The position numbers were made by a program, and so were the translations under genes. The notes beneath the pieces are model-generated. The model was not told the origin of the DNA and made no database searches. It saw only the letters and a program-made list of their open reading frames with translations. 44,408 bases of DNA from a virus, in IMG/VR virus record IMGVR_UViG_3300025592_000024. One strand, written 5' to 3'. Each line of letters starts with the position of its first letter. Positions within the stretch are counted from its first letter, which is position 1. Below, piece after piece: positions 6,683-36,766 of the stretch.

Positions 6683-7681
6683 ATGGCAAAAAGAAAAAAA
6701 AGTTTAGAAAAAGTATTGGAATCTATGAGAACAACCAATATACCTAAACTAGATGTACCACCAGACTTGTGGGATGGTTGCGAATTCGAAGAAATTGATG
6801 ACATATCGGGGAAAACTAGAGAACAATATTTCTGTCAATACAATATAGAACAAGGTTCTAACTTTAGACCATCTTCTAAAACAATTGATATTTTACCACC
6901 TGGCTTATACAAGGCACAAGATGACCAATTCGGAAATTTTTTCAGTAAGGAAAGTTTGGATATTAGTGAATTGATTAGATTTCCAGATTCAATGGCAGAT
7001 ACCGTTATAGATGAGTTCGATACTTTCTGGACAATGAAGGATAGATATTTGGATCGTGGAGAACCACACAAACGTGGATTTCTTTTATGGGGCCCACCAG
7101 GTGGTGGTAAGACTTGTACTGTTTCCTTTATCATCAAAGATTTTATATCACAAGGAAATGTAGTATTTATATTTAATTACAATTTAATGAGTGCACTCCG
7201 ATCATTTAAAAATATAGAACCAGATAGGAAAGTACTTATCGTAATGGAAGATATTGATTCGCTAATTAAAGATAGGCATGAAGAACAGGCCGTATTAGAA
7301 TTCTTAGATGGTTCGATTCAACATTCAAATACTATTGTAATTGCTACGACGAACTACCCCGAAGATTTACCTGATAGAATAATCAACAGACCATCAAGGT
7401 TCGATAGAGTTTCTTATGTGGGCGTTCCTTCCCTGAAAGATAGAATACTTTATCTAACAGAGAAATCTAAAAATTTATCTAAACCACAAATTAAAGGTTG
7501 GGCTAAAGAAACTGATGGGTGGACACTCGCACATCTCAAAGAATTAATTATCGCAGTTGAGGTTTTCGATTTAGACTGCGATGATACAGTTGACCGGATT
7601 AATCTCATGCGAGCTAAACACGAGCACTCTGAGAGTTACGAAAAAGAATTTCGTGGGAAGAAAAGTACTGGGTTTGTATAA
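6683..7681 (+). CDS. AAA+ ATPase (BCS1-like)
   Basis: Walker A GPPGGGKT, Walker B IVMEDID, sensor ATTN, arginine finger RPSRFD. Confidence 0.9.
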   Translation: MAKRKKSLEKVLESMRTTNIPKLDVPPDLWDGCEFEEIDDISGKTREQYFCQYNIEQGSNFRPSSKTIDILPPGLYKAQDDQFGNFFSKESLDISELIRFPDSMADTVIDEFDTFWTMKDRYLDRGEPHKRGFLLWGPPGGGKTCTVSFIIKDFISQGNVVFIFNYNLMSALRSFKNIEPDRKVLIVMEDIDSLIKDRHEEQAVLEFLDGSIQHSNTIVIATTNYPEDLPDRIINRPSRFDRVSYVGVPSLKDRILYLTEKSKNLSKPQIKGWAKETDGWTLAHLKELIIAVEVFDLDCDDTVDRINLMRAKHEHSESYEKEFRGKKSTGFV

Positions 7682-7935
7682 TGGGTGACTGGGGTAGAGT
7701 GATAAAAAGGTATGATGATGGAACACCGTTCATACGTATAAAGAATGAACATCTACTACCGGAACGAAAAGGACAATGGAGTGGAATTTTAAAAGCCGCT
7801 ATGTTGTTTAGTCCATGGTTGGTATTCACAGTAGTATGGAATTTCAATTGGCCAGAAGCAACTCCTGTGGATGATGTATTCTTTGCAACTTGTTTTTATT
7901 TCTTTAATAGAAGTTTTATAAATCGGTTTAATTAA
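7681..7935 (+). CDS. small membrane protein
   Basis: TAATG coupling; two hydrophobic segments. Confidence 0.65.
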   Translation: MGDWGRVIKRYDDGTPFIRIKNEHLLPERKGQWSGILKAAMLFSPWLVFTVVWNFNWPEATPVDDVFFATCFYFFNRSFINRFN

Positions 7936-9566: not shown

Positions 9567-9995
9567 GGGGCCGAAATTGGTTTCGATTCATGTTATTTGA
9601 CGATAGAGTGCAACACAAGTTTGAGTACGACTTGTTACAACAGACTCACAAACTCAAATGGTGATAATTCACTAGACGGTTTGGTAGTGGATTGGCATTT
9701 AGCTAATTCAGAAATGGGATTTGACAATTATGTTGAACCTACTTCAGATTACCAATCAACTTACGCTTTAGCGGCATGAGTTCTTGGGTTGTTTAACACC
9801 CGAGTATAAAAGAAGTTAAACACACTCTCTTTTTATATTTAGAGAATAAAAATAAAATGTCAGTTACTGGATATGTTCTGTGCAAAAGAAATCCACATAG
9901 TTGTTTGTTAATTGCTACTAATAGAAATTAACTAAGTTGTGAATGACTTTACGAAGAAAACAGAGAACACGGCGGTTCGATTCCGCCCGGCTCCA
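9567..9995 (+). ncRNA. ssrA: tmRNA (transfer-messenger RNA)
   Basis: Acceptor stem GGGGCCG/CGGCTCC with G3.U alanine determinant and discriminator A; T-arm GGCGG-TTCGATT-CCGCC; pseudoknot pairings ACAAGT/ACTTGT with GAGT/ACTC and TGTTTAAC/GTTAAACA; internal reading frame ends YALAA-stop; CCA not encoded (CTA). Confidence 0.95.
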
Positions 9996-10004
9996 CTACA
10001 AAAA

Positions 10005-11501
10005 ATGGTTATGAAAAAATACTACTACGAAAGAAGTCGTCTATTAGAATCAGAAGTTAATATAACTTTTGAAGAACTATTATGGAAAGACGATACACAA
10101 ACTACACAATGGATAGATGAATTACGAGAGTTCGTAATATACGAATGGGACACTATGGGTGTGCCTCCAACTATTGGCCAAAATACTGATAAAATAAAAA
10201 AGAACTTTCGTAAATTGAGAGATTACCCACTACATCAGGGTAAAAAACAATTTCTAACCAAAGATGAAGATACTGGCAAATTTGACGTAATACAAAATTA
10301 CAATAAATTTGGAAGTGGTGTAAATCAATTCTTTCCTACCATGTTGAAAACCAAAATTGGAACTAAAAAGAACGCAACTTCCATTTACGATTATTTTACA
10401 ATTGATTACAGAGATAGTTTTCATAAAATAATACGAAGAACATTTAAACGAGATAGTATGTATTCTTGGTCAAGGTGTGTTGAAAGTAATGGTAGTGGAA
10501 TAGAATGGATACAAAAAAATCAATCAAAAAACTTTTTCATAGTTCGACAATCAAAAGAAAAAAATCCAACTCATTTAGTTTTAAGTTCAGATGAAATTAG
10601 AGGGTTATTTGATGTAGATTTAATAGATGAATCTCATATTACAAATTTAAAATCATTAGATACATTAACTGATGAGAAATTCACATATTTTATTAGAGTA
10701 TTTAATTTAGGACAAAAGATATTCCCAGCCGGCATTCAAGCATTTAGATTAGGACTTGGACAACCAGCCGTAAACTTCCCACCATTAACAGCAAGATACT
10801 TATATGAGAAATATACAGAACATATATCACAAGACGTGCTCAATGTGTATGACCCATCCGCAGGTTGGGGTGGTCGTATTCTCGGAGCTATGTCATCACT
10901 CAAGCGAATTCATTATATTGGCACAGACCCTAATACGGATAATTACATAGACGAATTAGGTAAAACAAGATATGAATATGTAGCAGATTTCTTTAATAGT
11001 GAAGTATTGGAAACGAATTCATTTTGGGAAGAGCACAAAAACACGTATCACGTTTTCCAAGACGGCTCAGAATTAATTGGGAACAATCCAGACTTTCAGA
11101 CGTATAAGGGAACACTTGATTTAGTTTTCACAAGCCCACCATACTTTGACCGTGAGCAGTATAGTGATGATAGTGAGCAATCATTCAAGGCTTACCCAGC
11201 TTACGAAGATTGGAGAAATAACTTCCTGAAACCAACTTTAACAACTGCATTTGAATATCTTAAACCAAATCGTTATTTACTCTGGAATATAGCTTCAATC
11301 AAAATCGGAGCAGATAAATTTCATCCATTAGAAGAAGATAGTATATTTATTATAGAATCATTAGGTGGTGAATATAAGGGTAAGTTGAAAATGTTAATGA
11401 CAACAATGACTGGATTAAATCCGGAGAATGTTAAAAATTGTGTAAAGGTAGATGGTAGTTACCGAAAATATGAACCTATATTCATTTTTCATAAAAAATA
11501 A
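10005..11501 (+). CDS. amino-group DNA methyltransferase (m4C or m6A)
   Basis: Motif I YDPSAGWGG precedes motif IV DLVFTSPPY; start moved to ATG 10005 (or 10011) because 9939 lies inside the tmRNA. Confidence 0.88.
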   Translation: MVMKKYYYERSRLLESEVNITFEELLWKDDTQTTQWIDELREFVIYEWDTMGVPPTIGQNTDKIKKNFRKLRDYPLHQGKKQFLTKDEDTGKFDVIQNYNKFGSGVNQFFPTMLKTKIGTKKNATSIYDYFTIDYRDSFHKIIRRTFKRDSMYSWSRCVESNGSGIEWIQKNQSKNFFIVRQSKEKNPTHLVLSSDEIRGLFDVDLIDESHITNLKSLDTLTDEKFTYFIRVFNLGQKIFPAGIQAFRLGLGQPAVNFPPLTARYLYEKYTEHISQDVLNVYDPSAGWGGRILGAMSSLKRIHYIGTDPNTDNYIDELGKTRYEYVADFFNSEVLETNSFWEEHKNTYHVFQDGSELIGNNPDFQTYKGTLDLVFTSPPYFDREQYSDDSEQSFKAYPAYEDWRNNFLKPTLTTAFEYLKPNRYLLWNIASIKIGADKFHPLEEDSIFIIESLGGEYKGKLKMLMTTMTGLNPENVKNCVKVDGSYRKYEPIFIFHKK

Positions 11502-34581: not shown

Positions 34582-35715
34582 ATGTTTAAGGATATATCTC
34601 CAGACGATAGATCAATAAAAGAATTCAAAACTTATAAAAAATTCACCTTCACGCAAACAGATAGTGGAAGTGGTGTTTATGGAATAGAAGGTGTGAGTGG
34701 TAGTTTTCACAATTTCCTAACGGGATCAGCTGCATCTCAAAGTTATGGTGTATTTAATCAAGATTCTCAAAGTGTAGGTAAAGATTGGAAAACTTGGTAT
34801 AGTGATGGAACTTTTTTTAAGATTCCATTATATTATTCATTAAATCATCTATATTATCAATACGATAAAACTTCAAATCCAAAATCAAATACTACAAGAT
34901 TCCCAATTTATACTGTCACTGATTGGAGTAGAAAATGGCCACATGGCAGAGAAAGTTGGGGTTCAATAAATCCACGACAACTTCATAATAAATTTAATGT
35001 TATAACAATTCCACAAGAATACTATGGCGAAGAAATAAAACCACACTCCGTAAAGATATTAGATGATAGTGGAGACACCACTTTAGATTTAAGAGATGAT
35101 GGAAACGGACAACTCTACGATTACCAGTATTCAGCAAGTTTTGCCGCTGGAACTCCTGGTGGAAGTCCTTTAACTGGAAGTTGCGTGGGAAATGTATTTT
35201 ACGAACATGGACTTATCACAATTACAGATACAGGTTCTCTATATATTTCTGCAAGTATTGGTAGTGGTTCATCACCGTCTGGACAATATGATGGAACTGA
35301 TGGATTTACTGTTACATTTCAAGCAACAAAAACTTCATATGAATATGAATATGTTTGTCATGTTCCAGAATTTGAATTTACTGGTACTACAAATCCAAGT
35401 GCAGTTAATGGACGAAGTGGAAGTATTTATGTCCCACAGGGTGCAAAATATATTTACGATGGAAACCTTCAAAATCCACAATATGAAAATACTATTGATT
35501 TAGTAATGCCACCAGCAAGTAGTTCATATAATTTATCATACGATTCTGGAACACATTATCAGAATTTCACAACCCATTCAGAATTTGGGACTTATATTAC
35601 TAATATAGGTCTTTATAATGATGCAAATGAATTAATGGTTATAGCAAAATTATCAAATCCAATTAAAAACGATAAAGAATTGCCACTTTCATTTTTAATT
35701 AGATTTGATTCTTAA
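34582..35715 (+). CDS. virion structural protein, paralog C3 (divergent)
   Basis: YITNIGLYNDANELMVIAKLSNPIK..IRFD. Confidence 0.75.
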   Translation: MFKDISPDDRSIKEFKTYKKFTFTQTDSGSGVYGIEGVSGSFHNFLTGSAASQSYGVFNQDSQSVGKDWKTWYSDGTFFKIPLYYSLNHLYYQYDKTSNPKSNTTRFPIYTVTDWSRKWPHGRESWGSINPRQLHNKFNVITIPQEYYGEEIKPHSVKILDDSGDTTLDLRDDGNGQLYDYQYSASFAAGTPGGSPLTGSCVGNVFYEHGLITITDTGSLYISASIGSGSSPSGQYDGTDGFTVTFQATKTSYEYEYVCHVPEFEFTGTTNPSAVNGRSGSIYVPQGAKYIYDGNLQNPQYENTIDLVMPPASSSYNLSYDSGTHYQNFTTHSEFGTYITNIGLYNDANELMVIAKLSNPIKNDKELPLSFLIRFDS

Positions 35716-35751
35716 AGTATATTATAATTTATGATCCATGGGAGAAATACA

Positions 35752-35970
35752 GTGTATAATGACGATAGTGGAAAATTAGGAAAATTGTTATTGAATACTA
35801 ATACTATTACAAAACGACAATTATCAAAGGCAATTCAAAATCAAATGAGGGGGGACGATAGAAAACTTGGTAAAATACTTGTTGAATTAAATTATTGTAA
35901 TTATGATGATATAATAGACGTTTTATTAGATTTAAATCGTAAATTAATTAATTTGGATGATACGATTTAG
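35752..35970 (+). CDS. stand-alone MshEN-like (GspE/PilB N-terminal) protein
   Basis: Tandem KLGxxLL..I....L...I..Q / KLGxxLV repeats; GTG 35752 has a GGGAG RBS (ORF track start is 35731). Confidence 0.7.
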   Translation: MYNDDSGKLGKLLLNTNTITKRQLSKAIQNQMRGDDRKLGKILVELNYCNYDDIIDVLLDLNRKLINLDDTI

Positions 35971-36021
35971 TGTATATATTATATTTATATAAGGGAAATA
36001 TAATATATTTGGAGAATGTAA

Positions 36022-36390
36022 GTGGATCAAGAAATAAAACTGTTAGTAGAAGATGTGTTAGGACATTATGGGTGGATGGTGCTAATGATAGTAGCGGGAT
36101 TTTTATTTAAAGAATCTATAACAAACGCTTTAGAGGCTATAATGATTTTTATTGGTAATGATTTTAATAATGATGATGTGATTTATATTAGTGGTAGAGA
36201 GGCTCGTATAGTTAGAGTAGGAATAAGTAAAACTGTTTTTTATATGACTGACAGGGGAACTAAAATGATTGTACCAAATGAAAAATTAAAAAATTTAACA
36301 TTAGAAAAAATATTACCACACCGTATAGGACATAATTTATCAAAGGATGCGACACCAGCAGATACATTAAGAAAAAAAACGAATGATTAA
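36022..36390 (+). CDS. truncated MscS-family protein (TM + TM3-like helix + beta-domain)
   Basis: AGFLFKESITN..F..DDVIYISGREARIVRVG..T..D.GTKMIVPNEKL follows the MscS TM3/beta-domain pattern. Confidence 0.75.
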   Translation: MDQEIKLLVEDVLGHYGWMVLMIVAGFLFKESITNALEAIMIFIGNDFNNDDVIYISGREARIVRVGISKTVFYMTDRGTKMIVPNEKLKNLTLEKILPHRIGHNLSKDATPADTLRKKTND

Positions 36391-36766
36391 ATTAAAACAT
36401 CTATTATTAGAACGAGTTGATTATATAGAATTTGCGGAACAGCTCGTAAAACAATATAAGTTAAAATCAAAAGTAAAAATCACCAATGGTCCAGATAAAG
36501 CTGACTACGATGTGGATAGAGACACTATCAATATAAGATCATCTTATTCATCCGTTAAAGATTTTTATATTACAGTTTTACATGAAATCGACCATGCTAA
36601 AGATGCCAAAAAGATGGGTAAGTCTAAATATAAAAAGGATTATGAAATGGAAACTGCTTATGCTATAGAAAAAGGTGGTCATCACCATGACGATAATAGA
36701 TATGAAGAAAAGGCGGAGAATTGGGCACAGAAAGAATTTATTAGGGTGTGGAAAAATAAAATATAA
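36383..36766 (+). CDS. zincin-like HEXXH metallopeptidase with MIKLKHLLLE N-terminus
   Basis: TVLHEIDHA plus downstream YEEKAE glutamate. Confidence 0.7.
   Translation: MIKLKHLLLERVDYIEFAEQLVKQYKLKSKVKITNGPDKADYDVDRDTINIRSSYSSVKDFYITVLHEIDHAKDAKKMGKSKYKKDYEMETAYAIEKGGHHHDDNRYEEKAENWAQKEFIRVWKNKI

Follow-up and report, generated by a model that had tools for sequence, protein, structure and literature searches.

The window, that is the whole stretch of 44,408 nucleotides analysed from the IMG/VR virus record IMGVR_UViG_3300025592_000024, contains at 35752..35970 (+) a small open reading frame (hereafter the ORF) that begins with GTG and codes for 72 aa: an MshEN_N-type four-helix domain and a short novel C-terminal tail. 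Initiation further upstream, at an ATG at 35731, would give a product of 79 aa (35731..35970, +), and residue numbers such as K15 and L68 refer to this longer form. The GTG at 35752 is more likely to be the start, because a GGGAG lies 7 nt upstream of it, because in an alignment with the closest relative (locus L001) it coincides with the GTG at which the full-length gene begins, and because it is the commonest gene call. The Shine-Dalgarno-like GGGAG (35740-35744, +) is located inside a stretch (35738..35751, +) homologous to the region preceding the start of that gene; homology between the two DNAs begins 14 nt ahead of the GTG. In public gene calls, 72-aa forms occur on 184 and 81 contigs and the 79-aa form on 35, together about 300 contigs, one of which has 63,961 bases. 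Across these contigs, three single substitutions were observed as population variants.

The gene upstream (34582..35715, +) encodes a tail-fibre-like protein of 377 aa and is syntenic in relatives. Downstream, a block of intergenic DNA and an MscS-like gene occupies 35972..36390 (+). The gene itself (36022-36390, +) encodes a one-pass membrane protein of 122 aa with an MscS β-domain (Pfam E 2.4e-5). It is followed by a gene for a zincin-like metallopeptidase of 127 aa (36383..36766, +; MPTase-PolyVal, E 4.3e-7), the product of which also matches a PHROG annotated as anti-restriction protein (E 5e-5). It should be mentioned that Rfam reports a full-length one-piece tmRNA at 9567-9998 (+) of the window (RF00023, 56 bits, E 1.9e-19). 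ARAGORN, unlike Rfam, reported neither tRNA nor tmRNA in the window, leaving no tRNA for host inference.

Tandem motifs and fold

The residues that the preliminary description quoted for 35752-35970 are exact, in the plus frame and at the place given, and the two tandem 24-residue MshEN-like motifs it described are real. Motif I (K15-Q38, KLGKLLLNTNTITKRQLSKAIQNQ) is encoded at 35773..35844 (+) and motif II (K45-L68, KLGKILVELNYCNYDDIIDVLLDL) at 35863..35934 (+), with a spacer of six residues, not five. Compared with the consensus taken from PMC5013675 and PMC11731258, motif I keeps the Lys, the Leu-Gly, the hydrophobic positions and the terminal Gln (K15, L16, G17, L20, L21, I26, L31, I35, and Q38) and departs at position 10, which is Asn (N24), and position 11, which is Thr (T25). 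Motif II agrees with the consensus at K45, L46, G47, L50, V51, Y55, I61, and L65; position 10 is Asn (N54), position 12 is Cys (C56), and position 24 is Leu (L68) instead of Gln. This Leu falls in the non-homologous tail, and motif II is without its terminal Gln. The changes from Arg to Lys at position 1 and from Gly to Asn at position 10, described earlier for both copies, are confirmed in the translation. Both hydrophobic triads, L31/I35/L46 and I61/L65/L16, are present. Motif I does not satisfy the pattern (R/K/L)LGxx(LVI)(LVI)xxG(LVI)(LVI)xxxxLxxxLxxQ and passes only when positions 10 and 11 are freed; neither motif of the ORF matches the relaxed pattern of Wang et al.

Neither Pfam nor PHROGs assigned the ORF to a family. 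In the PDB, a single-sequence phmmer search matched the N-terminal parts of PilB from Geobacter (E 1.2e-4) and of PilF from Thermus (E 6.7e-5). A profile built from 24 family members gave stronger matches to PilB (5zfr, 4.8e-12; 5tsg, 3.8e-11), PilF (6f8l, 1e-10), and MshE (5htl, 2.3e-6). An exhaustive phmmer search returned 414 proteins at E<=1e-3, which fall into two groups: bacterial multi-repeat proteins with about 33% identity, and proteins with a single N-terminal unit and 45-61% identity. As judged from these sequence comparisons, the resemblance to MshEN N-termini is far beyond chance. The HMM search suggested in the preliminary description had a divided outcome, since the family profile recognized PilB, PilF, and MshE and the Pfam MshEN model (PF05157) did not match the ORF even at E<=10; only DUF4388 appeared, at E 0.024. 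The PF05157 model has 90 positions and may extend past the N-subdomain of about 53 residues, which might explain the missed match.

AlphaFold2, run on the family alignment, produced a confident four-helix model (pLDDT 86, pTM 0.69) with helices at residues 5-15, 21-32, 39-45, and 51-71. Ranks 1 to 8 of the Foldseek search were all MshE or PilF GSPII, at about 2 Å over 51-55 columns, and seven of these eight were complexes with c-di-GMP. In a search of 48,161 chains independent of Foldseek, MshE (Z 8.5), PilF GSPII-B (8.2), and PilF (7.1) took ranks 1 to 3, followed by XpsE-N (6.5, rank 4), Xanthomonas PilB-N (7lkm; 5.8, rank 5), and PilF GSPII-A (5.3, rank 7). The Z of 8.5 for MshE is that of the VIA-align match with 5HTL (rmsd 2.5, 57 aligned), and the Z of 8.2 for PilF GSPII-B that of the match with 8PDK. 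A structural search of BFVD yielded no clear relative of the ORF model. We regard the MshEN_N homology and the predicted fold as established, because the phmmer and profile matches, the AlphaFold2 model, and the two structure searches concur. The earlier assignment of an MshEN-type protein is in line with this model and its top matches.

The ORF product resembles Vibrio cholerae MshE MshEN_N (5HTL; PMC5013675) and Thermus thermophilus PilF GSPII-B (8PDK; PMC11731258) as a four-helix bundle with two helix-turn-helix motifs. Common to all three are the basic residue at position 1, which is Lys as in PilF GSPII-B, the Leu-Gly, the hydrophobic stacking residues, and the Gln of motif I. Unlike these two domains, the ORF product has Asn instead of Gly at the turn of both motifs, a Leu at the end of motif II, and a six-residue spacer. 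Furthermore, it carries neither the C-terminal subdomain nor an ATPase, and it is viral and free-standing. The same fold (Z 5.3-6.5) is found in domains that do not bind the nucleotide, namely PilF GSPII-A (9G1W; PMC12002112), XpsE-N (2D28), and Xanthomonas citri PilB ND0 (7LKM; PMC8389850), which are parts of ATPases with a second subdomain; the ORF has neither. This means that the structural matches include c-di-GMP binders and non-binders alike. One good and one degenerate motif are present in both the ORF and PilF GSPII-A; the latter lacks the motif I Gln, whereas the ORF keeps it.

Origin from a phage membrane-protein gene

When the single ORF protein was used, the IMG/VR scan gave no relatives; matches came only via an alignment-based scan, which identified 110 viral relatives. 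Eighty of the 110 were fetched (L001-L080). In all 80, the domain is at the front of a larger protein, which has 181-231 aa wherever the locus is uncut. This protein consists of MshEN_N, a variable charged or Pro-rich linker, a juxtamembrane segment with a transmembrane (TM) helix, and a periplasmic segment that has a coiled coil at its end. The juxtamembrane segment, the TM helix, and the periplasmic segment are conserved across the full-length relatives. In the AlphaFold2 model of the L001 protein, the N-domain has pLDDT values of 81-88, the linker is below 50 and disordered, and helices are formed by residues 93-122 and 147-190. ESM Atlas clusters of this viral family carry the automatic name "GspE N-terminal domain-containing protein".

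The N-domains of the family are 45-68% identical to that of the ORF, the highest value being for L001 (68% over 53 residues), and the start region is homologous. The ORF also occupies the syntenic slot of the family, with tail-fibre-like genes upstream and zincin, resolvase-like, primase, and SbcCD genes downstream. Unlike the family, it is without the linker, the TM helix, the periplasmic part, and both partner genes.

These partners are part of a trio with a fixed order: an outer-membrane-barrel-like gene, the MshEN_N-TM-coiled-coil gene, and a periplasmic thioredoxin-like gene. The trio occupies 4221-7007 in L001 and the same slot in L002-L080. The barrel-like protein, present in 76 of the 80 loci, is about 428 aa long, aromatic-rich, and equipped with a signal peptide; it had no match in Pfam. 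The thioredoxin-like protein (78 of 80 loci; Pfam E 1.9e-9) also has a signal peptide, shows a thioredoxin fold without CxxC, and is encoded immediately downstream. The few missing barrel and thioredoxin-like genes are all at cut ends of loci. Three metagenomic proteins of 160-165 aa (P0157, P0159, and P0163) form a shorter subfamily, in which the same N-domain and TM helix are followed by a brief periplasmic coiled coil and the conserved EYPS..NWPRSYEQYK segment is absent.

The region downstream of the trio is variable. In three relatives, type IV pilin-like ORFs of 142-156 codons (stop to stop), which start with KGFTLIEL and continue into a hydrophobic helix, are located 1.5-3.5 kb downstream of it: at about 8837, 9270, and 9767 in L002, about 7845 and 8280 in L013, and about 8463 in L039, all on the plus strand. 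Neither the window nor L001 yielded a gene of this kind. In L047, the genes downstream of the trio include one at 7260-7916 (+) for a protein of 218 aa that has a cyclic-nucleotide-binding domain (Pfam cNMP_binding, E 8e-16; POPDC-like) and one at 9859-10260 (+) for a NUDIX hydrolase; this variable region therefore gathers signalling-type genes. An endolysin looked for downstream of the trio in L047 was not found.

The junctions of the window with respect to its relatives were mapped along the locus. The end of the 377-aa gene (35601-35716, +) is followed by a part of the membrane-protein gene (35738-35931, +), namely its start region and initial ~62-66 codons, and homology to the full-length genes stops at 35918-35931. 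The junction (35932..35971, +), in which helix 4 is completed from about L68 on and the tail runs to the stop, is homologous to no relative. Homology to the region upstream of the MscS-like gene begins at 35972, and the segment 35972-36317 (+) comprises the intergenic region and this gene; the zincin gene follows from 36382 onward (+). In relatives L021 and L074, the block corresponding to 35972..36390 comes directly after the 377-aa tail-fibre-like gene. Homologues of the MscS-like gene are present in many relatives, directly after that gene and upstream of the barrel gene, and the zincin-like gene of the relatives is downstream of the whole trio. No single deletion from either of the observed arrangements yields the order in the window, and therefore at least two events are needed. 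Both of the rearrangements inferred left the domain and its ribosome-binding site intact.

As judged from these comparisons, the ORF is a 5' fragment of a conserved membrane-protein gene, and the partner genes are absent from the window: no trace of the barrel gene, the TM and coiled-coil part, or the thioredoxin-like gene was detected anywhere in its 44 kb. The window is one contig, and a full-length copy or the trio could be located elsewhere in the phage genome. The earlier statement that the protein is phage-encoded and stands alone is borne out for the present phage.

The position of the MscS-like gene 52 nt downstream raises the question whether the parent was split into a domain-plus-anchor pair, composed of the soluble domain and the one-pass MscS-like membrane protein. 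The two genes adjoin on the same strand, and the MscS-like protein has one TM helix and a β-domain of cytoplasmic type. However, relatives carry both the MscS-like gene and the full-length form of the MshEN membrane protein, with the barrel gene in between, so there is no sign of co-evolution. It also carries its own upstream region from its usual position. The 122-aa protein has no similarity to the lost C-terminal part and was rejected as its replacement. A split parent is thus highly improbable.

Searched by tblastn with the ORF and with the full-length protein of L001, 50,697 GenBank phage records gave no match, and the family is therefore taken to be absent from cultured phages. In 185,579 species genomes, only bacterial MshEN-type proteins of <=50% identity were found; the phage family was not represented, and the search therefore provided no host clue. 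The nearest cultured relatives of the phage are Microcystis phage Mel-JY01 and Flavobacterium phage immuto (38-48% protein identity). Although the latter is among the nearest relatives, the frequency of Shine-Dalgarno-like sequences in the window, which precede 26 of 44 starts, counts weakly against a Bacteroidota host.

Constraint and candidate ligands

The 47 unique full-length N-domains have 13 invariant positions, and 19 positions are at least 90% conserved. The window copy alters two of the 13 (D to N at position 10 of motif I, T to I at position 18 of motif II) and three of the 19 (D to N, E to K, and T to I). In a leave-one-out control, the full-length members showed either no change (43 sequences) or one (four sequences). 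Ten family-invariant residues, all of those in half-site I included, are kept. The window copy is the most diverged N-domain of the family: its nearest-neighbour nonsynonymous distance is 0.221, against a maximum of 0.191 among 58 full-length sequences, and its median pN is 0.284, against 0.162 for the family, with comparable pS values that are saturated at about 0.7. The larger distance and the higher pN mean that the window copy is faster-evolving at the protein level, as would be expected under relaxed or shifted constraint; its pN is still well below its pS.

In the family as a whole, the two half-sites behave differently. Half-site I is fully conserved: position 1 is K or R, the G and Q never vary, and the hydrophobic positions are retained. 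The second half-site is degenerate. Of 48 full-length relatives, 38 have Thr, Ser, or Ala at its position 1, and only three have Gln at its position 24. In addition, T27, K28, R29, G41, and T62 are invariant in the family and are outside the nucleotide consensus. Because half-site II is degenerate, canonical binding of c-di-GMP is probably not the conserved job of the parent N-domain. Its conserved role might instead be a half-site contact with guanine or an interaction with a protein partner.

Studies of related domains give a measure of what these changes would cost. The MshEN_N of MshE (53 residues; construct 1-62) binds c-di-GMP by itself with a KD of 0.35 µM (PMC5013675, in which a relaxed pattern is also given). 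PilF GSPII-B binds it at 6 nM with Lys and Leu at position 1, so that Lys or Leu is compatible with binding there and even favourable (PMC11731258). The Arg-to-Lys change is therefore no obstacle. The terminal Gln is more critical: in PilF GSPII-B, Q190E led to a 158-fold loss and Q218E to a 77-fold loss, and the double mutant did not bind (PMC11731258). By itself, the missing Gln of motif II would thus be expected to lower the affinity about a hundredfold. In engineered forms of the non-binding PilF GSPII-A, Ser at position 1 of motif II abolished binding, and Ala in place of the Gly at position 3 cost about 10-fold (PMC12002112). By analogy with these domains, high-affinity canonical binding of c-di-GMP by the ORF protein is unlikely; weak binding is possible.

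It might still be supposed that the free domain binds c-di-GMP or a related guanine dinucleotide and acts as a sensor of, or a sink for, the messenger during infection. The self-sufficient binding of MshE residues 1-62 and the tight binding of PilF GSPII-B with Lys or Leu at position 1 would permit this. The ORF keeps both position-3 Gly residues, both hydrophobic triads, K15, K45, and Q38; half-site I is invariant family-wide; the top structural matches are ligand-bound MshE and PilF-B; and the two rearrangements spared the domain and its ribosome-binding site. Against it stand the Leu in place of the motif II Gln, a position where even a single change to Glu is so costly in PilF-B, the Asn at both turns, the Thr at position 11 of motif I, the Cys at position 12 of motif II, and the failure of both motifs to match the relaxed pattern. 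The Thr, Ser, or Ala found at the first position of motif II in most relatives recalls the Ser that abolished binding in PilF GSPII-A and, together with the rarity of the motif II Gln, indicates that canonical binding is probably not the conserved function of the family. Furthermore, no GGDEF motif was found in the window. Taken together, a dinucleotide-binding role is unlikely, if worth keeping in mind.

The more specific proposal of the preliminary description, a dedicated small c-di-GMP sponge, is not supported, since the ORF is the 5' fragment of a gene that is full length in 80 of 80 relatives and its partners are absent. Tad1, Tad2, Acb2, and Acb4 (PMC11722364, PMC10312549) are likewise small phage proteins, and the ORF product could in principle sequester a cyclic dinucleotide as they do. 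Unlike them, it originates as a fragment of a membrane protein; the known sponges have other folds, and none of those listed in the literature searched is described as MshEN-type. None of the four appeared among the PHROG, PDB-sequence, or structure matches of the ORF, although a distant relationship might go unnoticed in such lists. The literature searched contained no phage-encoded MshEN protein; the related matches concern NfrB and phage N4, or other topics. The domain type is known, and its viral free-standing version, derived from a membrane protein, represents a new form of it.

A protein-binding decoy was also considered, as the preliminary description had suggested competition with host partners. 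The ORF product would imitate the N-terminal part of either a pilus or secretion ATPase or the parent membrane protein and compete for its partner, leading to altered pili or secretion or to interference with the envelope module of co-infecting relatives. PilB N-termini are the closest sequences to the ORF. Degenerate MshEN_N/ND0 domains without c-di-GMP binding are documented for PilB of Xanthomonas and Pseudomonas, and the N-domain of Xanthomonas PilB, which is rank 5 among the structural matches (7lkm), forms a complex with PilZ (PMC8389850). The invariant residues outside the nucleotide motif (T27, K28, R29, D/N24, G41, and T62) suggest another surface, and pilin-like genes are located near the trio in some relatives. 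However, MshEN_N itself has no known partner, and the Xanthomonas contact with PilZ uses an N-region of two subdomains, the second of which is missing in the ORF. The pilin-like genes are found in neither the window nor L001, and three otherwise conserved surface residues are altered in the window copy. We consider a decoy quite unlikely.

A remnant or a retained gene

The ORF seems rather to be a leftover or a side-product, i.e. a domain-only remnant or derivative that still folds and is not a dedicated sponge. We hold this to be probable, though by no means certain; the cut-off front end and the missing partner genes make it more likely than a purpose-built sponge. The parent is the middle gene of the fixed trio found in related marine myophages. 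In the locus of the present phage, at least two rearrangements removed the barrel gene, the TM and coiled-coil part, and the thioredoxin-like gene. The first ~62 codons and the ribosome-binding site were left in front of the MscS-like gene, closed by a novel tail of 13 codons. The ORF encodes a soluble cytoplasmic four-helix bundle of MshEN_N type, the truncated N-terminal domain of a phage inner-membrane protein. Most likely, this fragment still folds and may be made, but has been released from part of the constraint on the parent. If active, it would titrate whatever is bound by the cytoplasmic domain of the parent, which could be a protein partner or a guanine nucleotide held mainly by the intact half-site I, and would not serve as a canonical high-affinity receptor of c-di-GMP.

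The sparing of the domain, the start codon, and the Shine-Dalgarno-like sequence, the intact and near-invariant ORF, the ten family-invariant residues kept, and a pN below pS fit a retained functional stand-alone gene equally well as a recent relic. In the former case, selection might have preserved the free MshEN_N through the loss of the envelope module, as a cytoplasmic binder of guanine nucleotides (c-di-GMP or other) or as a mimic of the pilus-ATPase N-terminus. We give this rather little credence. If it were true, the ORF product would be the first viral MshEN-type second-messenger receptor or sponge, and the membrane-anchored parent family would couple a cytoplasmic nucleotide signal to a phage envelope machine. 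Should the fragment bind a nucleotide or a partner, it would illustrate how a phage can derive a free regulator in the cytoplasm from one domain of a membrane machine, and a new fold would be added to phage interference with second messengers.

As it stands, the main value of the ORF is as a pointer to a widespread, unstudied protein family of marine phages. This parent family places a PilB/MshE-type N-domain on the cytoplasmic side of a three-gene envelope module, sometimes near phage pilin genes. The phage of the window is a natural deletion variant without the module, and would be useful for asking whether the module is dispensable.

A further similarity between the window and L001 was noted at an unrelated position of the window. 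Positions 455-506 are 90% identical over 52 nt to 5575-5626 of L001, which are in a 127-aa gene of that locus; this stretch may be a shared regulatory or mobile element.
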